From assembly GCA_947627495.1 (NCBI GenBank), contig CANQWH010000001.1, positions 5,332 to 69,331 on the forward strand: DNA of 64,000 nucleotides, read 5' to 3'. Shown here piece after piece: positions 2,172 to 63,070 of this stretch (its first letter is position 1; the number at the start of each line of letters is the position of its first letter). The stretch is from an uncultured Clostridia bacterium (GTDB lineage Bacteria > Bacillota > Clostridia > TANB77 > CAG-508). Below the pieces are notes generated by a model. The model did no database searches, had not been told where the DNA came from, and saw nothing but the letters and a program-made list of their open reading frames with translations. The translations under genes were made by a program, and so were the position numbers.

Positions 2172-2298
2172 AAATAGCCAAACGCAGGAGTGATATATTT
2201 AGAACAAATTGAAGACTCCCGAAAAGCATCGAAGGCAATGACAAACGTGGGTTCAGTTTGTAAAAAATATATAACTCCTTTCGAGTTTGGCGGACTTT
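2172..2298. repeat. Interspersed repeat family A copy, core variant 1 (GC-rich palindromic core gaagactcccgaaaagcatcgaaggcaatgacaaacgtgggttca).
   Basis: Termini agccaaacgcaggag ... cgagtttggcggacttt are shared with 10 other copies in the window. Confidence 0.85.
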
Positions 2299-2418
2299 AA
2301 TAGTACAAAATAAGAAAAAATTTTACAAAAATATATTGCAAAACGAATAGTTATAATACAAAATAAAATTATAGAATAAAGAGAGAAAAAAGTATAAAAG
2401 AAAAGATGGTGAAAAAGA

Positions 2419-2447
2419 ATTGAAATTTGGTTTAAATTGTGATATAG
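2419..2447 (+). promoter_or_regulatory. Putative sigma-A promoter TTGAAA-17-TATAGT with a TGn extension, upstream of the M50 protease gene.
   Basis: Hexamer match and spacing are read from the sequence. Confidence 0.4.
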
Positions 2448-2486
2448 TTTTTATTACATATTATTTGTATAGAAAGGGAAGATAAA

Positions 2487-3200
2487 ATGTTTAATTTTGA
2501 TAGAAGAACACTATATATTATATTAGGAGCAATGGTATTAATGAATGTGCTAAATGGAGGGAGGTCAATAGAAGGATTAATATATTCATTGCCAGGTGTA
2601 ATAGTAGCAATGACATTCCACGAATTTGCACATGCTTGGGCAGCTACTAAATTAGGAGATGATACACCTAGACTACAAGGTAGACTAAATTTAAATCCAA
2701 TGAGCCATATAGATCCAGTAGGGATAGTTTGTTTAGCATTATTGGGATTTGGATGGGGAAAACCTGTACAAATAAATTCTAGAAATTTTAATGGAAAGTA
2801 TTCTTTATCAAAGGCAGAGGCAATAGTTTCTGCTGCAGGACCAATTATGAATTTTATAATTGCATTCTTATTTGTTGTAATTTATGCGATAATGGCTATT
2901 ACAGTAAGAACTATAACAAGACCTATTATAATATTACAAACAATAATATCATCAATAATATTAGTAAACCTAGGCCTAGGAGTATTTAACTTAATCCCAA
3001 TATATCCACTAGATGGTTCAAAAGTATTAAATCATTTTTTACCATATAAAGCTAAAGAGTGGTTTGAAAACAATCAATTTATACTATCTATTATTGTATT
3101 TATATTAGTATTTGGAACAAATATAATATCATATATTTCAGCATGGATATTGACTGGAATGGAATATTTAGTAGGATTAGTAATAGGAATTTTTATTTAA
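2487..3200 (+). CDS. Site-2 protease family (peptidase M50) integral membrane zinc metalloprotease
   Basis: HEFAHAW (HExxH) in a TM helix, an LDGSKVL motif and multiple hydrophobic segments. Confidence 0.8.
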   Translation: MFNFDRRTLYIILGAMVLMNVLNGGRSIEGLIYSLPGVIVAMTFHEFAHAWAATKLGDDTPRLQGRLNLNPMSHIDPVGIVCLALLGFGWGKPVQINSRNFNGKYSLSKAEAIVSAAGPIMNFIIAFLFVVIYAIMAITVRTITRPIIILQTIISSIILVNLGLGVFNLIPIYPLDGSKVLNHFLPYKAKEWFENNQFILSIIVFILVFGTNIISYISAWILTGMEYLVGLVIGIFI

Positions 3201-3347
3201 AATTTTATAAATTAGATATACACTTAAAAAATTAGAGTTTTTGTCTAACTTTTTAAGTGTATTTTTTGCAAAAGAATAAAAAATATATATTGACAAAAAA
3301 ATGAGTATAATATAGAATATATGAAGAAAATACTAAGGAGATAAAAA

Positions 3348-4868
3348 TTGGAAAAAGATAAATTTATTTCAAAATTTAATATAAAAGATTATAATAATCA
3401 ATTAGAAAAAATTTTATCTAAAAAGACTTTTTCTGAAGATACTAAAAACTTATTATTAAGTATGTTATATAAAGTAGAAAATGCATATGATGATTATAAT
3501 TTAGTAACACAAGATGCAAAAACAAAAAGAGAAATACTAGAAGAAATATTAGAAATAATAGAGAAAGATTGTGACAAAATAGATGTTATTAAAGAACAAA
3601 AAAGTAGCAGTAATATAAAAGAAAAAAAGATTATAACATATTTAAATGCTAGAAAAATGTTATATGAGATATATCAAATAAAAACTTTAAAGTTTAAAAT
3701 TCTGGAACAATACAATATAATAAAAAATTCTTTAGAACTAACACTAAATCAAGGCTATAGTATAGCTTCTAATGAAATAATTAGAGACTTCGATGGTTGG
3801 ACTTGGAACATAGAAGTACAAGAGATAGAAAATTTAAAAGCAAATTTAGTATATCAAACATTAAAAATATTAGTAGGGCATCAGTTTTTAGATGAATGGC
3901 AGAAGAGCAAAGATGATGATGATTATATCATAAATTTACAAGATAAATTGAAAGAAAAGTATGAAGATGAATTAGCAAAAGAATTATTTAAAGTGATAAA
4001 TCAAATAGCATTGCTAAATTCTATAGAAGCTGATAATAGTGAAAAAGATATATTACTAAATAAGCAAGAAATATTGCAAACTGAATATGATAAATTAGTT
4101 AATAAAAAGAAATATCTAGAAGAATTGGGAACAAAGAAAAAACAAATAGTAAAAGAAATAAAAAAAATAGATCAGATTATATGTAGTGATAGAATATTAA
4201 AAGAAGAATTTATTTCAAGAAATGAAAAGTTAGATATGGATCATAGAATATTTAGCTTAAGTGATTTTGTAGATTTATTAGAAGAAGATAGAAGTAATCT
4301 AATAGAAAAATTAAATATGTTTAGTAAAATGATGGAACCTTTAATATTTATAAAAACAAAAACTGAAGTAGAAAATAAATTACAATTAATTAAGGAATTA
4401 GACTTGCAAAATCTAAATCAAAAGATATATAATACAAAAGTAAAAGAATTAGTACAATTAGTATTTAAAGCGATAAAGATACAAATAGATAATGCAGTTG
4501 AAAAAGAAGATATAAAAAAGATAATATATAAAATTAGATATTATACTTCAATATATGTAGATAAAAACAAACAAATAAAGGATATAGTAAATACGGATAA
4601 TATACAAAAAGAAGCGGTAACAAAGGCATGTAAGCAAAGATATATAACAATATTTAGCCCAGACATAAAAGAAAATTACAAAATAATAAAAAACATATTT
4701 CAAACAGACATAATAGAATTAGAAAAAATATATTTTAAGTTTACACCTCAAGTAGATGGAATTGACTTAACTATGTATGATGAAGAAAGTACTTATAAAA
4801 TAGTTAAATATAAGGAAATAAAAGAACTAAATGTTAAGTTTAACAAAAAAATAAAAGTTTTTATTTAG
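3348..4868 (+). CDS. Hypothetical K/E-rich 506-aa protein with a TTG start and no recognisable domain.
   Basis: A long ORF with AAGGAG RBS 7 nt upstream of TTG. Composition is low-complexity and coiled-coil-like. Confidence 0.5.
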   Translation: MEKDKFISKFNIKDYNNQLEKILSKKTFSEDTKNLLLSMLYKVENAYDDYNLVTQDAKTKREILEEILEIIEKDCDKIDVIKEQKSSSNIKEKKIITYLNARKMLYEIYQIKTLKFKILEQYNIIKNSLELTLNQGYSIASNEIIRDFDGWTWNIEVQEIENLKANLVYQTLKILVGHQFLDEWQKSKDDDDYIINLQDKLKEKYEDELAKELFKVINQIALLNSIEADNSEKDILLNKQEILQTEYDKLVNKKKYLEELGTKKKQIVKEIKKIDQIICSDRILKEEFISRNEKLDMDHRIFSLSDFVDLLEEDRSNLIEKLNMFSKMMEPLIFIKTKTEVENKLQLIKELDLQNLNQKIYNTKVKELVQLVFKAIKIQIDNAVEKEDIKKIIYKIRYYTSIYVDKNKQIKDIVNTDNIQKEAVTKACKQRYITIFSPDIKENYKIIKNIFQTDIIELEKIYFKFTPQVDGIDLTMYDEESTYKIVKYKEIKELNVKFNKKIKVFI

Positions 4869-4907
4869 GTTGAAAATTAAAGCCATGATTAAGAGAGGAA
4901 GGTATTT

Positions 4908-6551: not shown

Positions 6552-6566
6552 GAAAGGAAAAAAACA

Positions 6567-8462: not shown

Positions 8463-8547
8463 GGTTACATATGGTTGCTTTGTGCATATAATGGGTAGTA
8501 AATTGCAACAACCAAACTTGGTGCCTAAAAAAAAATGGAGCAAAGTA

Positions 8548-8576: not shown

Positions 8577-8693
8577 TTACAAGTTGAAAAATACGCACGC
8601 AAGATTTAGTGTAAGGTTGTGCTTAAAATAAATTTTAAGTGTCCTTAAATGCAAAGAGATTTTGCGGAGGAAAATAACAAGGAGGAATGAAAA

Positions 8694-9473
8694 ATGGCAG
8701 TAGTTGCAATGAAACAATTACTTGAAGCAGGTGTACACTTTGGACACCAAACAAAAAGATGGGATCCTAAAATGGCTGAATATATTTATCAAGCTAGAAA
8801 TGGTATCCATATAATTGATTTACAAAAAACATCTAAAAAGATTGATGAAGCTTATGCATTCATTAAGGAAATCGCAGAGGAAGGTCAAGATATCCTATTT
8901 ATAGGAACAAAAAAACAAGCACAAGAATGTGTAAAAGAAGCAGCTGAAAAAAGCGGTATGTTCTATGTTGACCAAAGATGGTTAGGTGGAATGCTTACAA
9001 ACTTTAAAACAATTAGAACAAGAATTGAAAGACTAAAAAAATTAGAAGCAATGCAAGAAGATGGAACATTTGATGTTCTACCTAAAAAAGAAGTAGCAGC
9101 ATTAAAAAATGAAATGGAAAAACTAGAAAAGAACTTAGGTGGAATTAAAGAAATGACAAAACTACCAGGAGCAATATTTGTAGTAGATCCAAAAAATGAA
9201 AGAATAGCTGTTTTAGAAGCTAAAAAATTAGGAATACCAGTTGTAGGATTAGTAGATACAAACTGTAGTCCAGTTGATGTAGATTATCCAATTCCAGGAA
9301 ATGATGATGCAATTAGAGCAGTAAAATTAATTACAGATGTAATGGCAAATGCAATTATAGAAGGAAAACAAGGAGAAATATTAGAAGATAATACAAATAC
9401 TGAAAATGCAGAACAAGCTTCTGAAGAAGCACCAACAGACATGGAAGAAGTAGTTGCTGAAAGTGCTGAATAA
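8694..9473 (+). CDS. rpsB: 30S ribosomal protein S2
   Basis: [27 protein letters not shown] with a strong RBS. Confidence 0.97.
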
Positions 9474-12514: not shown

Positions 12515-12562
12515 AAATAATGGTTCCCTGTTTTATAAATAATTTTGCAAGTGAATATGCAC

Positions 12563-12704
12563 AAAGTAGCCAAACGCAGGGGTTTTATATTTTTTTTCGA
12601 AAGAAAATAATCAAACAGCCTGCTGCTCACGGATTACCAGCGTAGCCATTTTGATTTTTTCTTAAGAAAAAAATATAAAACCCCGACGAGATTTGGCGGA
12701 CTTT
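12563..12704. repeat. Repeat family A copy, core variant 2 (same termini, a different AT-richer core with an atcaaa...tttgat hairpin).
   Basis: Nearly identical to 31387-31524. Confidence 0.85.
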
Positions 12705-12729
12705 ATAGTACAAGCTGTGAATTGTAATT

Positions 12730-12815
12730 TCAAATTTACTTTGAAAGGGTGCCAAAAAAGATACCTAGAACTTCTGCAAACTGGACGTTAGACAAACGAA
12801 CTAAAAAATTTTTTT
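12730..12815. repeat. Partial family B copy (first half only) in inverse orientation, abutting the family A copy.
   Basis: Reverse complement of bases 551-640. Confidence 0.8.
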
Positions 12816-20140: not shown

Positions 20141-20200
20141 ATTCTCAAATTTTAATAAAAGATATTATGATAAGAATAAATTATAATAATTCACTAATTT

Positions 20201-20360
20201 ACAATAAAAATTTTTTAGCTTGTTTGTCTAACTCCTGTTCGCAGAAGTTTTATGTATCTTTTTTGGCACCCTTTCCTTTGGAACTTTTTCCAAAAAATCT
20301 ACTTAAAACTTCTAGCTCCATACGTTAGAACCACTTCGCTTGCAAAATTTTTATTGTAAA
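20201..20360. repeat. Repeat family B copy between argS and upp.
   Basis: Shares the tgtttgtctaac...ttcgcagaagtt...ttttggcaccctttc... core and ACAATAAAAATT/AATTTTTATTGT ends. Confidence 0.85.
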
Positions 20361-20404
20361 TTAGTAAACTAGTATAATAAATAAAAAAATAGGAGGAATG
20401 TAAA

Positions 20405-26590: not shown

Positions 26591-26945
26591 TGGTGGAGAT
26601 GGAGGGAGTTGAACCCTCGTCCAATATTCTATTCATACAAACTTCTACGAGTGTAGTTTATTATTAAACATTCCCTTAAATTCTAGCAAATAAACACGCT
26701 TGAATTTTTGGTAGCCTTTTAATACCCATTATTCTCAAGGCAAAGAATAATTTTGTTTCCTACTTTAATCGACGCCTTATCTATACCAGTAGGCCTTATA
26801 GTAAGACGACGTTGCAACTAGGCAGCGTATGCTAATTCATTATCAGCGTTTATTTTTAATTTCGCTTTTTTATAGTGGCCAAAGCGACCATCCACTACTC
26901 GCTATCTATACTTCAAAAATACTGTCGAAACCAAAATACATCCCC
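26591..26945 (-). ncRNA. ssrA: tmRNA (SsrA). The tag reading frame ends ...A-D-N-E-L-A-Y-A-A-stop.
   Basis: The reverse complement ends GGGTTCAACTCCCTCCATCTCCACCA (T-arm plus CCA) and begins GGGGATGTATTTTGGTTTCGACAG. An internal gct gat aat gaa tta gca tac gct gcc tag encodes the tag. Confidence 0.9.
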
Positions 26946-26986: not shown

Positions 26987-27020
26987 TAGAAAAATTTGCT
27001 ACAATTCACCGCTACATATA

Positions 27021-27054
27021 AAAGTCCGCCAAACTCCTCAAGTTTGGCTATTTT
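27021..27054. repeat. Family A solo-terminus footprint aaagtccgccaaactc/ctcaagtttggctatttt, with the two ends juxtaposed and no core.
   Basis: Matches both A termini. Confidence 0.7.
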
Positions 27055-27130
27055 AGGCATATAATAGGCAGTAAATTGTAATAAGAGTGTCCTGTAATTT
27101 ACAATAAAAAAAACCCAAATATTTGGGCTT

Positions 27131-27207
27131 TGGTAGCGAGAAGTGGATTCGAACCACCGACCTGTCGGGTATGAACCGAATGCTCTAGCCAACTGAGCTA
27201 TCTCGCC
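27131..27207 (-). tRNA. tRNA-Met (anticodon CAT). Elongator type is most likely, but Ile-lysidine cannot be excluded.
   Basis: Reverse complement GGCGAGATAGCTCAGTTGGCTAGAGCATTCGGTTCATACCCGACAGGTCGGTGGTTCGAATCCACTTCTCGCTACCA. It folds as a cloverleaf with anticodon loop TTCATAC. Confidence 0.85.
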
Positions 27208-31357: not shown

Positions 31358-31386
31358 AACATAAAAATATGGAAGAATTAAACACT

Positions 31387-31524
31387 AAAGTAGCCAAACG
31401 TCGGGGTTTCATATTTTTTTCGAAAGAAAATAATCAAACAGCCTGCTGCTTACGGATTACCCGCGTAGCCATTTTGATTTTTTCTTAAGAAAAAAATATG
31501 AAACCCCGACGAGATTTGGCGGAT
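31387..31524. repeat. Repeat family A copy, core variant 2
   Basis: About 95% identical to 12563-12704. Confidence 0.85.
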
Positions 31525-31531
31525 TATATAT

Positions 31532-32978: not shown

Positions 32979-33028
32979 TTGAATAAATCATTCCTTTCAT
33001 AAGTTGTTACAATTCAATGCTATATATA

Positions 33029-33084
33029 AAAGTCCTCCAAACTTGAAAGGAGCTTTCATATTTTTTTCTGAGTTTTGCTACTTT
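33029..33084. repeat. Family A deletion derivative (termini only), followed by the conserved A-flank motif
   Basis: aaagtcctccaaacttgaaaggagc ... gttttgctacttt. Confidence 0.65.
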
Positions 33085-33175
33085 GTGCATATAATAGACT
33101 GTAAATTGTAATTATAAGTTCCATATATATAATACACAAAAAATTAAAGTTTGTCTAGTATAAAATAAAAAATAT

Positions 33176-33982: not shown

Positions 33983-35087
33983 ATGGAAAAAAGAGAAGTA
34001 GGAATATATGTTCATATACCATTTTGCAAACATAAATGCTATTATTGCGATTTTACATCATTTGCTAATAAGGATAATTTTATAGAAGAGTATATTGAAA
34101 GATTAAAAAAAGAAGTAAAAGAATACGAATTAAATAAATATGAGATATCAACAATATATATAGGAGGAGGAACACCATCATATATAGATAGTAAGTATAT
34201 TGTAGATATTTTAAATACCATTCGGAAAGTTAGGGACAGAAAGCACAATAGAAGTAAATCCAGGAACTGCTACAGAGGAAAAACTTCAGGATTATTATAA
34301 TGCTGGTATAAATAGATTAAGTATAGGTTTGCAATCTACATGTGATGTGTTATTAAGCAATATTGGAAGAATACATAATTTTAAGCAATTCCTGGAAACA
34401 TATAATTTAGCTAGAAAGATAGGCTTCAAAAATATAAATGTGGATTTAATGATAGGATTACCAAATCAAACAATCTCAGATGTTGAAGAAAGTATCAAAC
34501 AAATTTTAGATTTGCGTCCTGAACATATTTCAGTTTATTCATTAATTTTAGAAGAAGGTACTAAATTAAAGGACATGGTTGATTCAGAAGAGCTAACATT
34601 GCCATCAGAAGAATTAGAAAGACAAATGTATTGGAAAGTTAAAAATATACTAGAAATATGTGGATATGAACATTATGAAATATCAAATTTTGCAAAAAAA
34701 GGTTATAGATCAAAACATAATACTGCTTGTTGGGATCAAAAAGAATATATAGGTTTAGGACTTGGTTCACATTCATATTTGAACGGAGTAAGATATTCAA
34801 ATTCAGAAGAAATGGAAGAATACTTATATTCTAATAAAAGAACAATACATGAGGAGCAAGATTATGAGACCAAAATGAAGGAATATATGTTATTAGGTCT
34901 TAGAAAAATAGAAGGAGTAAATATACAAGAATTTAAGAACAAATTTATGCAAAATCCCATATATTTATATATGATAGAATTAAATAAACTATTTGAGGAT
35001 AAACTAATTGAAATAGATACAGAATATATAAAATTAACTAAAAAAGGAATAGATTTAGCTAATTTGGTTTGGGAGGAATTTGTATGA
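33983..35087 (+). pseudogene. hemW: Radical SAM heme chaperone HemW (HemN-like) interrupted by a +1 frameshift near 34216-34220, an extra base in attCgga.
   Basis: CxxxCxxC (CKHKCYYC) in ORF 33983-34300. The protein continues in the +1 frame (GKLGTESTIEVNPGT...) and joins ORF 34329-35087. Confidence 0.75.
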
Positions 35088-39202: not shown

Positions 39203-39955
39203 ATGAGTATAATAAATTCTTATGATAATAGTGAAGAAATAGTAAAAGCAGAAATATTTACAAAGGAGCAACAAAAACTTTCTGAGAACGCGATAGTATG
39301 TTTTAAAAAAGAACTAATAGATGAAATAGAAAACATGGAAGAATTTGAAGAATATAGCAATATTGAAGTTTGTGGAGAAAAAGTAAAAATATATAAAACT
39401 AAAGTTTATGGAAAAGATGTTATTATATATAGAACTATGCTTGGTGGTCCAGCAACAGCAATGATGATGGAAGAAATTCATGCAAGGGGAGTTCAAAATT
39501 TCATATTTTTTGGTTCTTGTGGTGAACTTACTTCAGATTTAAAAAAGGGTGCATTTATTATACCAACAGCAGCCTATAGAGATGAAGGGACAAGTTATCA
39601 TTATATGCCAGCTTCAGACTTTGTAGAAGTAAAAACAGCTACAAAATTAGAAGAAATTTTTAAGAAAAATAAAATAAGTTATGAATTAACAAAAACATGG
39701 ACAACAGATGGTTTATATAAAGAAACTAAAGATAAGATGAAAAAAAGAGTACAAAGTGGTTGTAAAGTTGTAGAGATGGAGTGTGCATCAATTATGGCTG
39801 TTGCTCAAGCAAGAAACATAAATGCATATCAATTTTTATACTCAGATGATACACTTGCTGAAGCAAATTGGGATATAAGAACATTAAATGATAATAGAAG
39901 TCCACTATTAAAAGAATGTCTAAAAATCGCATTTGAAATTATTAAAGAAATATAA
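39203..39955 (+). CDS. Nucleoside phosphorylase family (PNP_UDP_1 fold) protein
   Basis: A C-terminal VVEMECASIMAVAQ motif typical of the PNP/MTAN family. Confidence 0.55.
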   Translation: MSIINSYDNSEEIVKAEIFTKEQQKLSENAIVCFKKELIDEIENMEEFEEYSNIEVCGEKVKIYKTKVYGKDVIIYRTMLGGPATAMMMEEIHARGVQNFIFFGSCGELTSDLKKGAFIIPTAAYRDEGTSYHYMPASDFVEVKTATKLEEIFKKNKISYELTKTWTTDGLYKETKDKMKKRVQSGCKVVEMECASIMAVAQARNINAYQFLYSDDTLAEANWDIRTLNDNRSPLLKECLKIAFEIIKEI

Positions 39956-39974
39956 AAAAGGGAAAGAAAGATAT

Positions 39975-40976
39975 ATGGAAGAATTAAAAAAAATATTTAA
40001 AGAAATAGGTTATACAGAAGAAGAAATGAATGAAATAATAAATGAATATGGAATAAGAGACTTAAAACCAGAAACTTTATTAGAAAATGTAAAAAGAAAT
40101 TATAGTTTCTTTTTATCAATAGGCTATAGCAAAGAAGATGTTATAAAAATGACAAAATCCTTGCCACAAATATATAGCTATAGTATAGACAATATGAAAC
40201 AAAAAATAGAAGATATGGAAAAATTAGGCTATAGCAAAGAAGACGTTATAAAAATGACAAAAATTTTCCCAGCAATATATAGCTTGAGTATAGACAATAT
40301 GAAACAAAAAATAGAAGATATGGAGAAATTAGGCTATAGCAAAGAAGACGTTATAAAAATGACAAAATCCTTGCCACAAATATATGGCTATAGTATAGAC
40401 AATATGAAACAAAAAATAGAAGATATGGAGAAATTAGGCTATAGCAAAGAAAACGTTATAAAAATGACAAAGACATTGCCAGCAATATATAGCTTGAGTA
40501 TAGACAATATGAAACAAAAAATAGAAGATATGGAGAAATTAGGCTATAGCAAAGAAGACGTTATAAAAATGACAAAAACTTTACCAGCAATATATAGCTA
40601 TAGTAAAGAAAATATAAAACAAAAAATAGAATTTTATGATTCAATAGGCTTACACTCATTAGCAATAATAGATGCAAAACAATTAATGCAAAGTACAAGC
40701 TTAAGTTATGCAAGATATATGTATTATAAAGATATAGGAATAGATATAGATGAAACAAATTATAAAAAGTTATTTATTAACAAAAAAATATTTGAAAAAC
40801 AGTATGGCATAACAAAAGAAGAATTATTAGCAAAATATAATTATCAGGAATACATGAGGAAGAAAAATACACAAGATTTAGGACAAGAAGTAGTAGATGT
40901 TTTGGAAAATACAGAGTATTTAGGAGATACAGAAGAAACAATAGGTGCATATGAAAAAGATGAAAAAATCAAATAA
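39975..40976 (+). CDS. mTERF-like helical repeat protein with 5 tandem 35-aa repeats and a conserved C-terminal domain
   Basis: The repeat LGYSKEDVIKMTKxLPxIYxxSIDNMKQKIEDMEK matches the mTERF motif LGFSxxxIxxIIxxxPxILxYSxExxLxPKIEFL. RBS aagggaaag is present. Confidence 0.6.
   Translation: MEELKKIFKEIGYTEEEMNEIINEYGIRDLKPETLLENVKRNYSFFLSIGYSKEDVIKMTKSLPQIYSYSIDNMKQKIEDMEKLGYSKEDVIKMTKIFPAIYSLSIDNMKQKIEDMEKLGYSKEDVIKMTKSLPQIYGYSIDNMKQKIEDMEKLGYSKENVIKMTKTLPAIYSLSIDNMKQKIEDMEKLGYSKEDVIKMTKTLPAIYSYSKENIKQKIEFYDSIGLHSLAIIDAKQLMQSTSLSYARYMYYKDIGIDIDETNYKKLFINKKIFEKQYGITKEELLAKYNYQEYMRKKNTQDLGQEVVDVLENTEYLGDTEETIGAYEKDEKIK
40122..40646 (+). repeat. Five direct tandem 105-bp repeats (coding) inside gene 39975-40976
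   Basis: ggctatagcaaagaagacgttataaaaatgacaaa recurs at 40122, 40227, 40332, 40437 and 40542. Variation is limited to 2-3 codons per unit. Confidence 0.9.
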
Positions 40977-40999: not shown

Positions 41000-41398
41000 A
41001 TGGAAGAAATATTAAAAGAAATAGGGATAAGCGAAAATACAATAAGTCAAATGGAAGAGTTATGTCCAAATATAAAAGAACTAAGCAAAGAAGAAATAGA
41101 AAAGAAGATAGAGAAACTAAAGGAAATGAAATGTGATGATATACAAGTAAGAAATATAATAAGTAGTAATGCTATATACTTAGATAGAAGCGTTACAGAT
41201 GTGGACAAGCTAATAAACACGATGAAAGACTTAGGCTTTGATAACTTAAATATACTATTAGATGGAAATCCATACATATTAAATTTAGACGACTTTGAAA
41301 TAAAAAATTACATAACAAAAAGAGAAGAAAAAGGAGAATTATTAGAAGACATAGTAGATGATATGAGTGCGAATCCATTCTTATTTGAAGAAATATAA
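41000..41398 (+). CDS. Short divergent mTERF-like protein of 132 aa (one or two degenerate repeats)
   Basis: N-terminus MEEILKEIGISEN parallels the flanking genes, and LGFDNLNILLDGNPYILNLDDFEIKNYI is motif-like. Confidence 0.5.
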   Translation: MEEILKEIGISENTISQMEELCPNIKELSKEEIEKKIEKLKEMKCDDIQVRNIISSNAIYLDRSVTDVDKLINTMKDLGFDNLNILLDGNPYILNLDDFEIKNYITKREEKGELLEDIVDDMSANPFLFEEI

Positions 41399-41419: not shown

Positions 41420-42673
41420 ATGGAAGAATTAAAAAAGATATTTAAAGAAATAGGTTATACAGAAGAAGAAATGAATGAAATAATAAATGAACATGGAATA
41501 AAAGAACTTAAACTAGAAACTTTATTAGAAAATGTAAAAAGAAATTATAGTTTCTTTTTATCAATAGGCTATAGCAAAGAAGACATTATAAAAATGACAA
41601 AGACATTGCCACAAATATATGGCTTAAGTATAGACAATATAAAACAAAAGATAGAAGATATAGAAAAATTAGGCTATAGCAAAGAAGAAGTTATAAAAAT
41701 GACAAAATCCTTGCCACAAATATATGGCTTAAGTATATACACTATAAAACAAAAGATAGAAGATATAGAAAAATTAGGCTATAGCAAAGAAGATGTTATA
41801 AAAATGACAAAAAACTCTCCAACAATATATGGCTTAAGTATAGACAATATAAAACAAAAAATAGAAGATATGGAAAAATTAGGTTATAGCAAAGAAGACG
41901 TTATAAAAATGACAAAGACTTTGCCAAAAATATATAGCTATAGTATAGACAATATAAAACAAAAAATAGAAGATATGGAAAAATTAGGCTATAGAAAAGA
42001 AGACGTTATAAAAATGACAAAGACATTGCCAGCAATGTATAACTATAGTATAGACAATATAAAACAAAAAATAGAGGATATGGAGAAATTAGGTTATAGC
42101 CAAGAAGAAGTTATAAAAATGACAAAGACATTGCCAGCAATATATTGCTTAAGTATAGACAATATGAAGCAAAAAATAGAAGATATGGAAAAATTAGGCT
42201 ATAATAGAGAAGAAGTTATAAAAATGACAAAGACATTGCCACAAATATATAGCTATAGTATAGACAATATAAAACAAAAAATAGAATTTTATGATTCAAT
42301 AGGTTTACACTCATTAGCAATAATAGATGCAAAACAATTAATGCAAAGTACAAACTTAAGTTATGCAAGATATATGTATTATAAAGACATAGGAATAAAT
42401 ATAGACGAAACAAATTATAGAAAATTATTTATAGGACAAAAAAAATTTAAACAACAGTATGGAATAACAAAAGAAGAATTATTAGCAAAATATGATTATC
42501 AGGAATACATGAGGAAGAAAAATACACAAGATTTAGGAAAAGAAGTAGTAGATGTTTTGGAAAATACAGAGTATTTAGGAGATACAGAAGAAACAATATG
42601 TGCACACGAAAAAAATGAAAAATCAGTTAGAGAAGATGAAACACGTCAAAGTTCAGAAAACCAAAGTAAGTAG
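41420..42673 (+). CDS. mTERF-like helical repeat protein with 7-8 tandem 35-aa repeats, a paralogue of 39975-40976
   Basis: The same N- and C-terminal domains, with a longer repeat array. Confidence 0.6.
   Translation: MEELKKIFKEIGYTEEEMNEIINEHGIKELKLETLLENVKRNYSFFLSIGYSKEDIIKMTKTLPQIYGLSIDNIKQKIEDIEKLGYSKEEVIKMTKSLPQIYGLSIYTIKQKIEDIEKLGYSKEDVIKMTKNSPTIYGLSIDNIKQKIEDMEKLGYSKEDVIKMTKTLPKIYSYSIDNIKQKIEDMEKLGYRKEDVIKMTKTLPAMYNYSIDNIKQKIEDMEKLGYSQEEVIKMTKTLPAIYCLSIDNMKQKIEDMEKLGYNREEVIKMTKTLPQIYSYSIDNIKQKIEFYDSIGLHSLAIIDAKQLMQSTNLSYARYMYYKDIGINIDETNYRKLFIGQKKFKQQYGITKEELLAKYDYQEYMRKKNTQDLGKEVVDVLENTEYLGDTEETICAHEKNEKSVREDETRQSSENQSK
41567..42301 (+). repeat. Seven direct tandem 105-bp repeats (coding) inside gene 41420-42673
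   Basis: ggctatagcaaagaag repeats at 105-bp periodicity from 41567. Confidence 0.9.
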
Positions 42674-45610: not shown

Positions 45611-45620
45611 TTACATTAGT

Positions 45621-45805
45621 TTAGATAGTTAAAATAAAAATTCTTTAGTTCGTTTGTCTAACATCCAGTTCGCAGAAATTCTATGTATCTTTTTTGGCAC
45701 CCTTTCAAAGTAAATTTGAACTATTTCCAAAAAATCTACTTAGAATTTCTTGCTCCTTCCGTTAAAACCACTTCACTTGCAGAATTTTTATTGTAACTAT
45801 CTAAA
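45621..45805. repeat. Repeat family B copy with a 24-bp TIR TTTAGATAGTTAAAATAAAAATTC / GAATTTTTATTGTAACTATCTAAA
   Basis: Over 95% identical to the copy at 551-716. Confidence 0.85.
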
Positions 45806-45865
45806 CAGAATAATAAAGTTTAATTATTAATAATTAAACTTTAGCTAAGTGGACAGTAACAATTT

Positions 45866-45898
45866 TTAATAAATATATAACTGCTGCGTTTGGCTACT
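45866..45898. repeat. Solo terminal fragment of family A (aaatatataactgctgcgtttggctact)
   Basis: Reverse complement of the left end of the copy at 62946. Confidence 0.7.
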
Positions 45899-45939
45899 GA
45901 AGTATTTAATTATGATAAGAGAAAGGAATGATTGATTTT

Positions 45940-46872: not shown

Positions 46873-46958
46873 AGAATAAATTTATTAAAGTTTTACTTAA
46901 TTTGCAATTAGTATAATAACAGCTTAATTATTGTTACTACTATTAACAGATTATACTA

Positions 46959-47088
46959 TAAAGTCCGCCAAACTCGAAAGGAGCTTCTATATTTTTTCTA
47001 AATTGAACCCACGCCGGCGATTGCCTTCGATGCTTTTCGGGGGTCTTCAATTTTTAAAAAATATAGAACTCCTGCGTTTGGCTACTTT
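46959..47088. repeat. Repeat family A copy (core variant 1) in the fabD-fabG spacer
   Basis: aaagtccgccaaactcgaaaggagc...gaacccacgccggcgattgccttcgatgcttttcgggggtcttc...ctcctgcgtttggctacttt. Confidence 0.9.
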
Positions 47089-47168
47089 AGATTAATTAAG
47101 TGACTGTGAGCAGTAACTTAGTAATATATCAAATTATAAAAATAAAATGTAATGAAAGGATGATTTTT

Positions 47169-47904: not shown

Positions 47905-48027
47905 GTTTGAAAAATAAACTTCGTCTTGCGTCGTTATTATTAAACAAAAAATGCTCAACGTACCTTTGTACGCCTCCGCTTTTTTGTTTAATAATGCCTA
48001 GCAATACTCGTTTCTTTTTCAAACTAG
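47905..48027 (+). promoter_or_regulatory. Nested long inverted repeat (AGTTTGAAAAA...TTTTTCAAACT outer, TTATTATTAAACAAAAAA...TTTTTTGTTTAATAAT inner) between fabG and fabF
   Basis: Read directly. It occupies the position where acpP usually sits. Confidence 0.4.
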
Positions 48028-49790: not shown

Positions 49791-49884
49791 ACCATATAAC
49801 AAATCACAGTTTTACAATAAAAATTCTGCAAGCGAAGAGGTTCTAACTTTCAGTTAATGCAATTCATAGCCAATTAATTAATTA

Positions 49885-50013
49885 AAAGTAGCCAAACGCA
49901 GGAGTTCTATATTTTTTAAAAATTGAAGACCCCCGAAAAGCATCGAAGGCAATCGCCCTCGTGGGTTCAATTTACAAAAAATATAGAAGCTCCGACGAGA
50001 TTTGGCGGACTTT
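49885..50013. repeat. Repeat family A copy (inverse orientation) in the accB-fabZ spacer
   Basis: Shared termini and GC-rich core. Confidence 0.9.
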
Positions 50014-50114
50014 TTAGTATAAACTTTGAATTTGTAACGCCCTGTTTTTAGAATTTTTATTGTAAAACTGTGAGTAGTGGTATAAATAAAGTATAAAGAA
50101 AGGATTTTTATAAA

Positions 50115-50619: not shown

Positions 50620-51960
50620 ATGCTAAAAAAAGTATTAATAGCAAATAGAGGAGAAATTGCTGTTAGAATAATAAGAGCATGTAAGGAATTAAATATAAAA
50701 ACAGTTGCTGTATATTCAGATATAGATAAAGATAGTTTACATACAAAACTTGCAGATGAAGCAGTATGTATAGGAAAAGGACCTGCAAGCCAGAGTTATC
50801 TAAATGTAAAAAACATTTTAGAAGCTGCAAATATAACTGGGGCAGATAGTATACATCCAGGTTTTGGATTCTTATCTGAAAATGCTAAATTTGCAAAAAT
50901 GTGTGAAGAATGTAATATAAAATTTATTGGTCCAAATTTTTCTGTAATAGAGAAAATGGGAGATAAGGTAAATAGCAAAGAATTAATGAAAAAAGCAGAT
51001 ATTCCTGTAATTCCAGGAATGGATTTAAAAGATAAAGATATAAAGGAAATAAAAGAGATAGCAAATAAAATTGGTTATCCAGTAATTTTAAAAGCATCTA
51101 ATGGTGGTGGAGGAAAAGGCATAAGAGTTGTAAAACAAACAAAAGATTTAGTTGAAGCAATAAATATAGTAAAAAAAGAGGCAAAGCAAGCATTTAATAA
51201 TGATGATATATATATAGAAAAGTACATAGAAAATCCAAGACATATAGAAGTTCAAGTATTAGCAGATGAATTTGGAAATATTATACATTTAGGAGAAAGG
51301 GACTGCACAATTCAAAGAAAGAATCAAAAAATATTAGAAGAAAGTCCATCAATAGTTCTAGATGATGGTTTAAGAGAAAAAATATCAAAATGTGCAATAA
51401 AAGCAGTAAAGGCATCAAATTATACAAATGCAGGAACAGTAGAATTTTTAGTAGATAAAAGCAAAAACTTTTATTTTATGGAGATGAATACAAGAATACA
51501 GGTTGAACATCCAGTAACAGAAATGCTTACAGGGGTAGACATAGTAAAAGAACAAATAAGAATTGCATCAGGAGAAAAACTTTCATATAAACAAAGCAAA
51601 ATAAACTTTACAGGTCATGTTATAGAAGTAAGAGTAAATGCAGAAAATCCAAGCAAAAATTTTATGCCTTCACCAGGAACTATAACAGGGTTGAACTTGC
51701 CAGGTGGAAATGGAGTAAGAATAGATTCAGGAATATATTCAGGTTATACAATATCTCCATACTATGACTCAATGCTTGCAAAAATTATAGTACATGGAAG
51801 AGACAGAGAAGAAGCCATAGCAAAATTAAAACAAGCTTTAGAAGAATTAGTTATAGAAGGCGTAGATACAAATATTGACTTTTTGTTAAAACTTATAACA
51901 AATGATGATTTTAAACGAGGTAGTTACGATACAAGTTTCGTGGAGGAAAAACTTGTATAA
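50620..51960 (+). CDS. accC: Biotin carboxylase
   Basis: ATP-grasp motifs and a total length of 446 aa. Confidence 0.93.
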   Translation: MLKKVLIANRGEIAVRIIRACKELNIKTVAVYSDIDKDSLHTKLADEAVCIGKGPASQSYLNVKNILEAANITGADSIHPGFGFLSENAKFAKMCEECNIKFIGPNFSVIEKMGDKVNSKELMKKADIPVIPGMDLKDKDIKEIKEIANKIGYPVILKASNGGGGKGIRVVKQTKDLVEAINIVKKEAKQAFNNDDIYIEKYIENPRHIEVQVLADEFGNIIHLGERDCTIQRKNQKILEESPSIVLDDGLREKISKCAIKAVKASNYTNAGTVEFLVDKSKNFYFMEMNTRIQVEHPVTEMLTGVDIVKEQIRIASGEKLSYKQSKINFTGHVIEVRVNAENPSKNFMPSPGTITGLNLPGGNGVRIDSGIYSGYTISPYYDSMLAKIIVHGRDREEAIAKLKQALEELVIEGVDTNIDFLLKLITNDDFKRGSYDTSFVEEKLV

Positions 51961-51973
51961 TAGTTTAGAATAT

Positions 51974-52102
51974 AAAGTCCGCCAAATCTCGTCGGAGCTT
52001 CTATATTTTTTCTAAATTGAACCCACGAGGGCGATTGCCTTCGATGCTTTTCGGGGGTCTTCAATTTTTAAAAAATATAGAACTCCTGCGTTTGGCTACT
52101 TT
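51974..52102. repeat. Repeat family A copy in the accC-accD spacer
   Basis: Shared termini and core. Confidence 0.9.
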
Positions 52103-52152
52103 GGTGTAAATAATAATTATTAAAATAAAGTTTTTAAAAAGGAGGGAGAACC

Positions 52153-53016
52153 TTGATAGTTGACAAAATACGAAAAAGCACTAGTACCGAAACATTAGTA
52201 GAACATAAAGTAGACATACCAGTAGGAAAATGGATAAAATGCGATAAATGCAAGGAAATAATATATAAAGAGACTGTAAATGAAAACTACAACATATGTC
52301 CGAATTGTGGAAACTATTTTAGGCTTTCAAGCAGAAGAAGACTTGAACACATAATAGATAAAGGTACATATAACGAATTTGAATTAAATATGCAGAATAT
52401 AAATCCATTAAACCTTAGTGAATATCCAAAAAAATTAGAGGCATTGCAAAGAAAAACAGGTTTAACAGAAGCAGTAAGATGTGGAACTGGATGTATAGAC
52501 GGTGAAAATGTAGTAATATGTATAATGGATAATAATTTCCTTATGGGAAGTATGGGAAGTGTAGTTGGTGAAAAGATAACATATTCTATAGAAAAAGCAA
52601 TAGAACTTAAATTACCATTAATAATATTTTGCGTATCAGGTGGAGCAAGAATGCAAGAAGGGATAATTTCTCTTATGCAAATGGCAAAAACTTCTGCAGC
52701 ACTTACAAAACTAAATGAAGCAGGAAATCTTTATATATCTATATTAACAGATCCTACATATGGAGGTGTAACAGCAAGTTTTGCTAGTTTAGCAGACATA
52801 GTTTTAGCAGAACCAGGAGCTATGATAGGCTTTGCAGGACCAAGGGTTATAGAACAAACAATAAGGCAAGAGTTACCACAAGGATTTCAAACATCAGAAT
52901 TTTTACTAGAACATGGATTCATAGATAAAATTGTAGAAAGAAAAGAATTAAAGAAAACCTTAAGTAAAATTATAAAACTACATAAAGGAGGCGACTTTAA
53001 GTGGCAAAACAAATAA
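52153..53016 (+). CDS. accD: Acetyl-CoA carboxylase carboxyltransferase beta subunit (TTG start)
   Basis: Zn ribbon CxxC...CxxC (CDKCKE...CPNCG) and a CT domain. Confidence 0.88.
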
Positions 53017-53778
53017 CTGCGTGGGATAGAGTAACAATTGCAAGAAAACCAGATAGGTTAACATCATTAGATTATATAGAAAATATATTTGATGATTTTT
53101 TTGAATTACATGGAGATAGAAATTTTAAAGATGATAAAGCAATAGTATGTGGCTTAGGAACAATAGAAGATAAAACATATACCATAATAGCAGAGCAAAA
53201 AGGAAGAACAACAAAAGAAAATATAGAAAGAAACTTTGGAATGCCTAATCCAGAAAGTTATAGAAAAGCAATTAGATTTATGAAACAGGCAGAAAAGTTT
53301 AGAAGGCCAGTTATAACTTTTATAGATACAAAAGGAGCATATCCTGGTTTAGAGGCAGAAGAGAGAGGACAACGGTGAAGCAATTGCAAGATGTATATAT
53401 GAAATGGCAAATTTAACAGTTCCTACAATAGTTGTAGTAATAGGAGAAGGTTCAAGTGGAGGGGCATTAGCAATAGGCGTTGGAAATTATGTTATGATGC
53501 TTGAAAATGCTATATATTCAATACTTTCACCAGAAGGCTATGCAAGTATAGTATGGAAAGATTCTAGCAAAGTAAAAGAAGCGGCTGAACAAATGAAATT
53601 AACAGCTAAAGATTTATATGAATTAAAAGTAATAGATAAAATAATAAAAGAAGATGATAATATATTTAATAATATAAAAAAAGAAATAATAAAACAAATA
53701 GATAAATCAAAAGAAAAAACAGGTGAAGAAATAAGAGAAGAACGATATCAAAAATTTAGAAATATTGGAAAACAATAA
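53001..53778 (+). pseudogene. accA: Acetyl-CoA carboxylase carboxyltransferase alpha subunit with a GTG start, interrupted by a +1 frameshift at about 53375 (extra C in caaCggtgaa).
   Basis: ...[10 protein letters not shown] is followed by a stop. Deleting the C gives [35 protein letters not shown], which joins ORF 53404-53778. Confidence 0.8.
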
Positions 53779-54574: not shown

Positions 54575-54617
54575 TTATTTTAAAAAATAAATGGTTACTT
54601 TTTATAGCTTATACTGT

Positions 54618-54745
54618 AAAGTCCGCCAAACTCGAAAGGAGTTATATATTTATTTTAAATTGAACCCACGAGGGCGATTGCCTTCGATGCTTTTCGGGGG
54701 TCTTCAATTTTTAATAAATATATAACTCCTGCGTTTGGCTACTTT
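54618..54745. repeat. Repeat family A copy in the fabI-fabK spacer
   Basis: Shared termini and core. Confidence 0.9.
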
Positions 54746-54809
54746 AGAATAATTAATTAGCTGTGAATGGTAAATAATAAGAATAAATTGTGAAAGGAAG
54801 GAAAAGGGT

Positions 54810-58053: not shown

Positions 58054-58279
58054 TGACGATAAAATTTGTGAAAACGTGATAATTGGCAGTTGAAAAACTT
58101 ATGATAAACCATCGACTGAAATTTATATATTCATTAAAATTTATTAAGTTTTAAAGAGACCACAGTAATGTGGCCTTTTTAGTGCAAAAAGAAAAATGTT
58201 TAGTTCTTGAATAAATGGATAAAATAGTGTATTATATATATTAGTTGTAAATCTTAAGTGTAAAGGAAGAGTATAAAGC

Positions 58280-59131: not shown

Positions 59132-59136
59132 TAACA

Positions 59137-59670: not shown

Positions 59671-59675
59671 AAAAA

Positions 59676-59720
59676 ATGATATCCGCCTATGACATTTTAT
59701 GGTGTAGGTGGGTATCATTT
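59676..59720. terminator. Imperfect hairpin gatatccgcct...aggtgggtatc followed by a long T-run. It is shared by the convergent genes.
   Basis: A stem of about 11 bp with two mismatches. Confidence 0.45.
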
Positions 59721-59723
59721 TTT

Positions 59724-59891
59724 TTATTTTTTTTCTGCAGTTTTTTTAGTTTCGGGAATAATAATATTTTTTTTCTCCTCTTTAGGAGATGGTTTTGCTA
59801 TATTAAGATGTTCATAAACAGGAGAAATTTCTAAATTTTCACCATTATCATCCATAACAACTTCAATATCATTATTTTTATTTTCTTCCAT
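59724..59891 (-). CDS. Possible small acidic protein of 55 aa (MEENKNNDIEVVMDDNGENLEISPVYEHLNIAKPSPKEEKK...)
   Basis: RBS aaaggtg 7 nt upstream of the ATG. There is no homology call. Confidence 0.3.
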   Translation of the reverse strand: MEENKNNDIEVVMDDNGENLEISPVYEHLNIAKPSPKEEKKNIIIPETKKTAEKK

Positions 59892-60102
59892 ATATATCAC
59901 CTTTTAAAATCATAACATAAAAGAAAAAAACTGTCAAATAATTTAACACAATTAATAAACATAGAAAATTTATCAATGTGGCAGATATAAAAAGAAATTC
60001 ATAATATATATAAGAAAAATAGTATATTAAGCTAAGGGGTGGACAAATTATAAAAAAGATGGTATAGTATTTAAGTATGTTTTTTCAATAGGAGGACGTG
60101 CA

Positions 60103-61329: not shown

Positions 61330-61455
61330 TTTTTACAAAATTTCCTATAATATAAATAAAGTAAAATCCTATCAATGGTGATGAAGATTATTGACATGCT
61401 TTTTGTTTCCCTCAATAATTTCCGTCCCAATTGACAGAGCTATAAAGAGGTTTTT

Positions 61456-62325
61456 ATGAAAATTAGTATAGGAAAAAATATTGTAAAAGCCAAAAAAATT
61501 ACAATAGATTTATTAAAAATCACCATTGGAACAATGATTATGGCAATAGGTATAGATTTATTTTTGTTGCCTAATCAGCTTTCAACAGGTGGTTTTTCTG
61601 GTATAGGAACAGTTTTTTATTATCTTTTTGGAATATCTGTGGGAACTACAATGCTGTTATTAAACCTGCCATTATTTATATTATCATATTTCAAAGTAGG
61701 AAAGAGATTTTTCCTAAATGCTCTGGTAGGTACTGCATTATTATCTTATTTCTTAAATATATTTGAAAAGTTAAATCCAATTACAAATGATAGAGTATTA
61801 GCTTTTATATATGGTTCTATAATTGTAGGTATAGGTACTGCAATAGTGTTAAAAGCACGTGCCTCAACAGGGGGAACAGAGTTAGTTGCAAACATTGTAA
61901 AAGCATATAGACCACAATTAAAAACAGGAACATTAATTGTAATTTTTGATACAATAATTATTTCAGCAAACACAATATTTTTTAAAGATATAGAAGTAGC
62001 TTTATATTCAGCATTAGCTATATATATTATGGGAAAAATATTAGATATATTTTTTGAAGGTATAGATTTTGCTAAGATGCTTTTAATTATTTCTCCAAAA
62101 TGGGAGGAGATATCTAATAAAATAAATACAGAAGTAAGAAGAGGAACAACATCTTTATATGGAGAAGGAATGTATAAAAAAGAAGAAAGGAAAATTCTCC
62201 TTTGTGTAATGTCTAGAAATGAAGTAAGAGAAGTAAGGAGAATAGTGGAAGAAATAGATCCATCTGCATTTATAATAATAGCAAATGCAAGGGAGGTTTA
62301 TGGAGAGGGATTTAAGGAAGCTTAG
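61456..62325 (+). CDS. yitT: YitT-family membrane protein (DUF161 membrane domain plus a C-terminal DUF2179 domain)
   Basis: Multi-TM N-terminal part and a soluble C-terminal domain. Confidence 0.7.
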   Translation: MKISIGKNIVKAKKITIDLLKITIGTMIMAIGIDLFLLPNQLSTGGFSGIGTVFYYLFGISVGTTMLLLNLPLFILSYFKVGKRFFLNALVGTALLSYFLNIFEKLNPITNDRVLAFIYGSIIVGIGTAIVLKARASTGGTELVANIVKAYRPQLKTGTLIVIFDTIIISANTIFFKDIEVALYSALAIYIMGKILDIFFEGIDFAKMLLIISPKWEEISNKINTEVRRGTTSLYGEGMYKKEERKILLCVMSRNEVREVRRIVEEIDPSAFIIIANAREVYGEGFKEA

Positions 62326-62360
62326 AACCTCGCTCTTGCCATTTTATGAAAATCAAACAC

Positions 62361-62900
62361 TTAATATATAATGGCGGTTGGTATATAGGTAGCATCAGGA
62401 GGATAGGTAAACTCATCAGCAGGTTTATCTATCTTCTTAATTTTGCTAATTTTAATAATAGGAATTTCACCATGATAATTTCCTTTAGAAATAACACCGG
62501 TTATTTCTACCCAGGTTCCATCTGCATAGCTTTTAGCATCATTATGAGTACATAAAAAACCAACAATTAGTTTTTCGGTACTACCCTCAACAATCATATC
62601 TCTAGCAAGCACAAATTGATTTTCAGTAAAATCTAAATTTCTATAAACATAACCAGAAAAACAAATTTTTTGCCCAACATAAGTGTCTATATTTTCATAA
62701 ACACTTTTTAAAATATTTGTATAATTATCAGCTTGAATATAGGCAACATCAGGTTCTTTGATACTGTCTCTTACTTTAAAACTATTGTTAAATATTTTGT
62801 ATAAAGAGAGTAAGAAGAAAATAACTACAATAATTGAAATTATAATAAGGGAAACTTTAACAATACTTTTACTATTAAATTTAATATTATAAATAAACAT
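62361..62900 (-). CDS. Hypothetical membrane-anchored protein of 180 aa. The start was moved to MFIYNIKFNSK because the ORF-track N-terminal extension lies inside repeat A.
   Basis: RBS agaggtg, an N-terminal TM helix and a soluble C-terminal domain. Confidence 0.5.
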   Translation of the reverse strand: MFIYNIKFNSKSIVKVSLIIISIIVVIFFLLSLYKIFNNSFKVRDSIKEPDVAYIQADNYTNILKSVYENIDTYVGQKICFSGYVYRNLDFTENQFVLARDMIVEGSTEKLIVGFLCTHNDAKSYADGTWVEITGVISKGNYHGEIPIIKISKIKKIDKPADEFTYPPDATYIPTAIIY

Positions 62901-62945
62901 ACACATACACCTCTTATAACAATTAAAGATATTAATTATAGTAGA

Positions 62946-63070
62946 GTAGCCAAACGCAGCAGTTATATATTTATTAAAAATTGAAGACCCCCGAAAAGCA
63001 TCGAAAGCAATCGCCATCGTGGGTTCAATTTAGAATAAATATATAACTGCTTTCGAGATTTGGCGGATTT
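62946..63070. repeat. Repeat family A copy
   Basis: agtagccaaacgcagcag...gaagacccccgaaaagcatcgaaagcaatcgccatcgtgggttca...gagatttggcggattt. Confidence 0.9.

Follow-up and report, generated by a model that had tools for sequence, protein, structure and literature searches.

Among the repeats described in bacteria, the closest to the element analysed here are the full-length foldback MITEs (miniature inverted-repeat transposable elements), of which QMITE2 of Coxiella burnetii is ~190 bp long, with direct repeats (DRs) of 7-9 bp, terminal inverted repeats (TIRs) of 23-29 bp and a core of 113-145 bp (PMC10969869). The element, termed family A, is an interspersed repeat of a 64,000-nt stretch (hereafter the window; contig CANQWH010000001.1, positions 5,332 to 69,331) from an uncultured Clostridia bacterium. 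Similar to QMITE2 and Chunjie/Nezha (PMC10969869), family A is ~180-190 bp long and non-coding, carries TIRs, belongs to the 7-9 bp duplication class, targets A/T-rich intergenic sites, forms a stable stem-loop and includes many truncated copies that have lost TIRs and DRs and then resemble repetitive extragenic palindromic (REP) sequences. It differs from these MITEs in its occurrence in uncultured gut Clostridia and in displaying several unrelated cores on one frame. Every MITE feature that could be tested was found in family A, namely small size, TIRs, target-site duplications (TSDs), lack of coding sequence, A/T-rich intergenic targets, a stem-loop, truncated copies and a presence that differs among relatives, and these features fit both the definition of prokaryotic MITEs and the QMITE2 architecture (PMC10969869). 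Family A is very probably a non-autonomous foldback transposon (MITE) of ~178-190 bp.

Other small repeats share part of this organisation. The Correia elements of Neisseria (CREE/NEMIS; features drawn from PMC10969869 and general knowledge) are transposon-like elements with TIRs, often co-transcribed in operons as hairpin RNA, with internal-deletion size variants and a central conserved site, which in Correia is an IHF site. In contrast with family A, Correia duplicates TA rather than 8 bp and has 26-bp TIRs of an unrelated sequence; demonstrated effects on promoters and through RNase III are those of Correia alone. The pneumococcal BOX, RUP and SPRITE repeats and the enterobacterial ERIC sequences are likewise small, modular (BOX A-B-C) or palindromic, intergenic within operons, and endowed with predicted RNA structures and terminator-like motifs, but RUP duplicates TA, BOX lacks both TIR and TSD, and no sequence relationship to family A was observed.

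Family A is represented in the 64 kb by 12 copies or remnants. The 46-nt core quoted in the original prediction matched five times at ≤3 mismatches, where dinucleotide-preserving shuffles expect 0.00, and the same positions were linked by a search for direct and inverted repeats (lengths 130-163 nt, identity 74-94%). A copy or fragment is present at each of the 11 positions listed originally, to which one extra remnant at 8464-8509 is added; nhmmer and the repeat search agree on one set, with nothing further above noise. A cross-species nhmmer profile recovered eight long copies (2147-2308, 12548-12728, 31371-31531, 46935-47113, 49859-50034, 51956-52121, 54591-54771 and 62932-63091) together with a fragment (45860-45910) and a short form (33007-33100), while a 34-nt inner short form (27021-27054) was recognised by eye and by pattern. 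The core is GC-rich, as had been noted (56.5% G+C vs 24-32% in the window).

The end motifs originally named as terminal inverted repeats (AAAGTAGCC.../...GGCGGACTTT) proved to be subterminal. An outer inverted repeat is located ~25 nt beyond each of them, and the true ends, GTTACAATTCACAGC...GCTGTGAATTGTAAC, form a 15-bp outer TIR (GTTACAATTCACAG-type) that many copies match at 11-12 of 12 positions. The unit reads GTTACAATTCACAGC, an A/T spacer of 11-14 nt, the frame, a spacer of 9-10 nt and GCTGTGAATTGTAAC, and with its outer TIRs measures ~178-190 bp rather than the ~130-170 bp first estimated; short forms measure 85-107 bp. Recognisable outer TIRs in the window delimit 26998-27082, 33006-33112, 46933-47116, 49853-50038 and 54594-54773. 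The flanks immediately outside the outer TIRs are 8-bp direct repeats. A fixed rule was applied to the 18 copies with both outer TIRs, with all mismatched pairings of left and right flanks as control: the 8-nt flanks were identical at ≥7 of 8 positions in eight copies and perfectly so in four, while mismatched pairings reached 7/8 in 0.3% of cases and 8/8 never. TSDs, which the original prediction had proposed to look for, are thus present and 8 bp long. Perfect examples are AAATATTC (related locus L011), AGAAAAAG (L018), AAATTAAG (L016) and ATATTGTG (L037), and L022 displays AAGATAAT under a looser TIR match. Perfect TSDs surround copies with core A (L011, L018, L037) and with core B (L016) alike, which argues that the whole unit, including the outer TIR, is mobile. 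No pair of outer TIRs without the inner frame was found in ~380 kb of related loci, and the mobile unit is therefore the entire 178-190 bp structure. An 8-bp TSD is what a DDE-type transposase typically leaves when it cuts its target in a staggered way; IS256-, ISL3-, IS6-, IS66- and IS1595-like transposases all produce duplications of this length.

The frame is conserved yet asymmetric and subterminal, with AAAGTAGCCAAACGCAGGAG + TTTTATATTT... as its left part and ...AAATATAAAA + CTCC(GACGAGA or TTTCGAG)TTTGGCGGACTTT as its right part; inside it lie an A/T stem and then an exchangeable apical core. A single shared core had been assumed, but at least four unrelated apical cores occupy the one frame, termed A and B, with others in L012, L026 and L032. 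The interior of core B (...GAAAGAAAA-stem-AGCCTGCTGCTTACGGATTAC-...) is carried in the window by the copies at 12563 and 31387, which match core A copies at the ends only. Both right-hand loop variants were found with core A and with core B inside one genome. No open reading frame (ORF) fits within the units, which lie between called genes. Aligned with the full copies, the two short forms prove to be simple internal deletions.

Stable hairpins had been proposed, and the full copy at 49853..50038 is predicted to fold as a single long hairpin both as RNA (-51.6 kcal/mol, z=-6.0) and as DNA (-32.8 kcal/mol, z=-6.4). RNAalifold analysis of 43 core A copies from 15 species gave 28 pairs, ten of them with compensatory double changes. 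After three terminal pairs were added, 97.3% of cells were paired, and both-side changes were observed at 11 pairs, in 64 cells; this compares with 11.0 ± 2.8 compensatory cells in column shuffles and ≤8 when partners were slid by 1-3 columns. Core B also displays compensatory stem changes (TTCGAA/TTCGAA vs ATCAAA/TTTGAT). Amid this covariation three asymmetries are conserved, comprising TA facing GGA beside the outermost stem, GCA facing GACGAGAT or TTTCGAG, and a C.T mismatch within CCCCCG/CGTGGG; the hairpin arms are therefore not mere copies of each other. One-sided changes in the inner helices (~12 G.U vs 7 A.C) present no clear strand bias.

A scan of one genome per species for the two end motifs spaced 95-120 nt apart returned 48 loci, of which 46 derive from 15 species of uncultured Clostridia/Clostridium known as metagenome-assembled genomes (MAGs). 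The other two are Bacteroidota loci that show no family similarity by nhmmer and represent chance pattern matches. The copy set, from window and scanned loci, comprised 62 pattern matches, or 61 after one Bacteroidota chance match was dropped. Family A is spread over no fewer than 15 MAG species of uncultured Clostridia, recovered from the guts of humans (UMGS1640, UMGS1616), rabbits (many 'Lapin' bins) and ruminants, with roe deer and others among the sources. A single rabbit-gut MAG contains at least 18 strict-pattern copies, and MAGs with young copies include CANREW01 (Lapin-024__bin78) and USEM01 (UMGS1640). Several sites are occupied in more than one species, namely window 62946 with L046 and L051 (flanks 76-81% identical), L008/L050, L005/L007 and L025/L032. 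One site has differing occupants, the copies in L012 and L016 possessing different cores in opposite orientation, and at a site where L032 retains the left arm only, fused to another GC-rich palindrome, its 95-97% identical sister L019 holds the complete element. Empty sites of single insertions were not found between sister species; where these were compared, the insertion was either shared or a different one close to that gene. Identity of the window copy at 62946 is 83-87% with its paralogues in the window and with copies of the closest relatives vs 74-75% with its positional orthologues, suggesting that paralogues are homogenised or that the site has been used repeatedly. In the rabbit-gut MAG locus L032 (3046-3245), the palindrome that replaces the right half of the family A copy (...TTTGCAGCCTAC-loop-GTAGGCTGCAAA...) likewise has GTAG beside its stem and hints at more related repeat families in the clade.

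All 61 copies, across window and loci, are intergenic and occur in both orientations, extending what had been reported for the window. The neighbouring genes are in tandem around 40 copies and divergent or convergent around eight each, and in tandem gaps the element follows transcription 19 times and opposes it 21 times. This random orientation argues against a strand-specific RNA function and, modestly, against a single-strand, replication-coupled HUH mechanism. GC skew is monotonic across the window, which therefore lies within one replichore, and its copies are distributed as five plus and six minus.

Four copies are located in a co-directional fatty-acid operon (birA, fabD, fabG, fabF, accB, fabZ, accC, accD, fabI, fabK-like), in the very gaps named in the original prediction, and must be co-transcribed with it. 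They comprise a full core A copy in the fabD/fabG gap (46933..47116, inner 46960-47088, minus strand; diverged outer TIRs GTTACTGCTCACAG / CTGTTAATAGTAGTAAC), a full core A copy in the accB/fabZ gap (49853..50038, inner 49885-50013, plus strand; core match and nhmmer), a core A copy in the accC/accD gap (51956..52121, inner 51974-52102, minus strand), which begins 13 nt past the accC stop and has lost its outer TIRs, and a full core A copy between fabI and the fabK-like gene (54594..54773, inner 54618-54745, minus strand; outer TIRs GTTACTTTTTATAGC / GCTGTGAATGGTAA). Related fab loci were reached through FabZ homologues, 84-91% identical. The window spacers measure 287, 156, 69, 324, 82, 192 and 235 nt, compared with 74, 20, 11, 28, 23, 12 and 55 nt in L052-L055 (FabZ 91%), where gene order is that of the window. 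In L059-L061 (FabZ 84%) the layout is similar as far as fabI and most spacers are 11-17 nt, with a fabG/fabF gap of 203 nt that contains an unrelated insert. The family A profile found zero copies in the fab loci of L052-L055 and L059-L061, so that the four copies in the operon represent a recent invasion confined to this lineage and not conserved regulators. The fragment before fabD and an unrelated 100-nt fabG/fabF palindrome are likewise insertions specific to the lineage. L052 appears to come from sample BRZ_PA, and a BRZ_PA MAG has family A elsewhere.

Two further palindromes were observed in these spacers. The short fabD/fabG spacer of L052-L055 (~3495-3535) contains GTAGGGGCGAGCATTGCTCGTCCGCCAAAT, a small hairpin with the GTAG and GTCCGCCAAA motifs of family A, which may be the relic of an ancient copy in the spacer where the window has a full one. 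The 100-nt palindromic insert between fabG and fabF of the window (47908-48010) is single-copy in all sequence examined. Metagenomes containing this species include ERZ27248994, ERZ27249481 and ERZ27249483. Near-identical metagenome contigs (99.7-100%) have the window's family A copies but are devoid of this palindrome, and in one contig with 99.7% identical flanks (L001:2390-2400) an AGTTT...AAACT stub is left in its place.

Terminator-like motifs (stem + T-run) are enriched in the fab region (13 vs 3.4 ± 1.8 expected, as pattern matches only). Seven of the 13 lie inside cores, on the sense strand in three of the four operon copies (47023-47054, 52026-52068 and 54669-54711). Promoter-like sites, also counted as pattern matches, are not enriched (49 vs 61.8 expected). 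Some effect of the operon copies on mRNA is plausible, but the random orientation and the relatives' compact operons without family A make it less probable that the element exists to influence fab mRNA stability or polarity.

Database searches revealed no known relative of family A. On the window, tmRNA and tRNA alone pass the Rfam gathering threshold, so that no annotated RNA family, an identity that the original prediction had considered, accounts for the repeat; at E<=10 on two copies the best models are miRNA hairpins, with 15-26 bits vs thresholds of 53-245. Plasmid, phage and literature searches gave no sequence similarity, and literature string searches for the motifs returned unrelated primers only and no description of the family. 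Family A is undescribed so far, although the kind of element is ordinary. In agreement with the original prediction, Pfam/NCBIfam searches of essentially all ORFs identified no transposase gene in the window. Neither the solo outer TIRs in related loci nor the plasmid, phage and viral collections yielded a transposase candidate, and a 1.9-kb insertion in L058, considered as a possible carrier, is a pilin-like gene.

Several readings of the structure were rejected. The variable cores between conserved ends had prompted comparison with integron attC sites, which was abandoned because GCCAAAC/GTTTGGC does not fit RYYYAAC/GTTRRRY, the neighbours are housekeeping genes and TSDs are present. Insertion into pre-existing hairpin targets, with the ends belonging to the target, disagrees with the short forms being plain internal deletions, with the lack of frameless TIR pairs and with TSDs that flank the whole unit. 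A tRNA-like or T-loop interpretation of GGGTTCAA/GGGTTCGA was discarded, as these form an ordinary stem covarying with TTGAA/TCGAA. Outward promoters in the ends were also dismissed, there being no promoter enrichment, and the TATAAT of some left spacers lacks a convincing -35.

The mechanism that best accommodates these data is that of a MITE. Family A inserts via an 8-bp staggered cut at A/T-rich intergenic sites. Copies decay through internal deletion, giving the short forms, and through loss of TIRs and TSDs, and compensatory changes keep the hairpin across at least 15 species. The cut would be made by a DDE transposase that is encoded at another place in the genome, acts in trans and recognises the 15-bp TIR. 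The asymmetric frame loops, the hairpin and the apical sites could serve transposition, as binding sites for transposase or host factors or as architecture, comparable to the IHF site of Correia, with selection on loops and hairpin acting at the level of the element and not of host function. The fab-operon copies would be tolerated passengers, co-transcribed as hairpins of ~-50 kcal/mol, and effects on mRNA processing, decay, polarity or partial termination, if any, a side effect.

A number of observations weigh against this interpretation. The DDE transposase acting in trans is a step that we infer solely from the TSDs, and an autonomous partner with the same TIR is absent from the window and from ~380 kb of related loci. 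A clear TSD is present in just one of the ~5 window copies with recognisable TIRs (33006-33112), and this scarcity, together with fab copies that are 94% identical to one another, needs gene conversion or decayed flanks. Several copies share orthologous sites in different species, which indicates that many date far back and that transposition may be infrequent. That the frame ends do not vary across species is partly built in, since the search pattern demanded those ends. Finally, the unpaired 20-nt apical loop of core B (GCCTGCTGCTTACGGATTAC) is constant across species where the adjoining stems have diverged, and this loop and the conserved asymmetric internal loops are more than a purely selfish element obviously needs.

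Another reading is that of a long-lived, vertically inherited hairpin scaffold, kept in a manner similar to REPIN/RAYT by a dedicated and possibly single-copy DDE transposase producing the 8-bp TSDs, with paralogues homogenised in each genome. In such a scheme the loops and cassettes, exemplified by the conserved unpaired GCCUGCUGCUUACGGAUUAC loop of core B, would be functional protein- or RNA-binding modules spread to intergenic sites. We consider this arrangement unlikely; if true, family A would be more than a decaying parasite. A genuine REP/BIME or REPIN-type element, passed on by long vertical inheritance and amplified by a RAYT (a single-copy HUH tyrosine transposase that works on hairpins of single-stranded DNA), was judged improbable, and slightly more so than the scaffold. 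The GTAG tag had made this reading attractive. As in REP/BIME/REPIN systems with RAYT (PMC3733652, PMC3337134), nearly every copy has GTAG directly 5' of the left hairpin arm, the hairpin is long and imperfect, with conserved bulges and compensatory evolution, and intergenic copies reach high numbers, with BIME-like mosaic modules. The largest REP superfamily is tagged by GTAG, which is also where RAYT cleaves, and in other bacteria some GTAG REP dimers lie inside longer palindromes (PMC3733652). Family A also resembles REPIN populations in its persistence at orthologous sites and across at least 15 related species, which have a sequence cluster of their own in each case. However, only the left frame end bears GTAG, its counterpart on the right being GTCC in the opposite strand. 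A self-contained palindrome of 20-40 bp is lacking, the partner of the left arm being >100 nt away in a ~180 bp unit. In addition, the copies in the single replichore show no orientation bias with respect to replication, the true outer TIRs are flanked by 8-bp TSDs, and no Y1_Tnp/RAYT ORF was identified in the window and no multi-copy ORF in the related loci. HUH/IS200-type transposition is not known to make target-site duplications. The original description of the family as MITE/REP-like therefore stands in its first half, family A being dispersed, non-coding and palindromic with TIRs and TSDs, while the REP/BIME mechanism is not upheld by the TSDs, the one-sided GTAG and the lack of a REP unit.

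Host-selected cis-acting RNA elements, much as the original prediction proposed, are about as doubtful as the scaffold; here operon hairpins would govern how stable individual mRNA segments are, their processing by RNase III or partial termination. The transcribed position of the copies within a co-directional essential operon, the predicted stability of the RNA hairpin, the enrichment of terminator-like motifs, seven of them in cores, and the retention of the copy upstream of the DUF1980 gene at one site in three species would be consistent with such a role, for which Correia and ERIC elements offer a precedent (PMC10969869). This contrasts with the random orientation relative to transcription, the equal occupation of divergent, convergent and tandem gaps, the wobble changes without clear strand bias, the relatives' operon with 11-75 nt spacers in most gaps and zero copies, and the TSDs, which show placement through transposition. 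A structured non-coding RNA gene, ribozyme or riboswitch family that merely resembles a repeat is the least credible of the alternatives and can practically be set aside. Strong covariation and conserved unpaired nucleotides in the apical regions speak for it, but Rfam gave weak generic miRNA-hairpin matches only, both orientations are equally common relative to flanking genes, the apical cores are interchangeable and mutually unrelated, promoter-like sites are not enriched and TSDs and TIRs are present.

The remaining window copies of family A display varying degrees of preservation. The most diverged core A copy (2147..2308, inner 2171-2298, plus strand; nhmmer E=5e-38 and alignment) is located between serS (minus strand) and an M50 peptidase gene and has weakly recognisable outer TIRs. 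The extra copy at 8464..8509 (minus strand), read from the sequence, is a heavily deleted remnant that retains both outer TIR stubs (GTTACA...GTAAATTGCAAC) and is tied to the copies at 27051 and 33081 by direct-repeat family D18. Core B is found in the family A frame at 12548..12731 (inner 12563-12704, plus strand), where the right outer TIR GCTGTGAATTGTAA is intact, and at 31371..31531 (inner 31387-31527, plus strand), squeezed in between the stop codons of fba (31357) and smpB (31532), where no outer TIR is recognisable. An 85-bp short form (26998..27082, inner 27021-27054, minus strand) keeps outer TIRs and frame ends and has its entire interior deleted; it sits between tmRNA (26591-26945, minus; tag ADNELAYAA) and tRNA-Met (27131-27207, minus). 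The smpB gene lies 4.5 kb from this short form, with another family A copy against its stop codon. The 107-bp short form at 33006..33112 (inner 33029-33084, minus strand) has both outer TIRs and a whole right arm but lacks the left arm of stem 2, which is the A/T stem, and the core; its flanks, CATAAGTT (32998-33005) and TATAAGTT (33113-33120), are direct repeats matching at 7/8. A left-end fragment between birA and fabD (45860..45910, minus strand; nhmmer E=2e-9) comprises the left frame arm only. Finally, the core A copy at 62932..63091 (inner 62943-63071, plus strand) lies ~45 nt upstream of the minus-strand DUF1980 gene. The predicted 218-aa ORF 62361-63017 (minus) extends 40 codons into this copy, and its orthologues align only from residue 40 on, so that the gene proper (DUF1980 C-terminal domain) begins near 62900. 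The N-terminal extension is thus spurious and arises from the family A copy.

A second foldback repeat, family B (~170-190 bp, TIR TTTACAATAAAAATTCT), was observed at 536-720, 20197-20369, 45620-45810, 12729-12813 (minus) and 49797-49847 + 50045-50083, as well as in the related MAG loci L033, L035 and L042. Each full family B copy presents its own ~10-nt palindrome extension beyond the shared TIR. Family B is often beside family A or nested with it: a half copy adjoins the family A copy at 12548..12731, another copy adjoins the fragment at 45860..45910, and the arms 49797-49847 and 50045-50083 bracket the accB/fabZ copy. Elsewhere in the window, three adjacent ORFs (39933-40976, 41000-41398 and 41420-42673) are built of 105-nt (35-aa) tandem repeats and match Pfam mTERF (PF02536; E = 6e-34, 2e-7 and 2e-56, respectively). 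The mTERF proteins are chiefly a eukaryotic organellar nucleic-acid-binding family, and bacterial members in a hairpin-rich genome are curious. The accA gene is split into two ORFs in different frames, both in the window (53001-53378 / 53404-53778) and in L052-L055 (8648-9040 / 9042-9455), whereas the 84% FabZ relatives have one 267-aa ORF (L059 8656-9459); conservation of the split suggests an AccA truly made of two pieces, or else programmed frameshifting. The same kind of split interrupts a hemN-like radical SAM gene (33983-34300 / 34329-35087).

Family A leaves the current understanding of MITEs unchanged. It provides a defined repeat family, with its TIR, TSD, frame and cores, for annotating a MAG-only clade of low-G+C gut Clostridia, in which such repeats break assemblies and produce spurious ORF extensions such as that of 62361-63017, and its copies are usable as strain markers. 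For the organism, hairpin insertions of 130-320 bp are tolerated in almost all spacers of a fab/acc operon that is essential and normally compact. For the family, the covariation across species and the conserved asymmetric bulges constitute a clean data set on what a MITE needs besides its TIRs.

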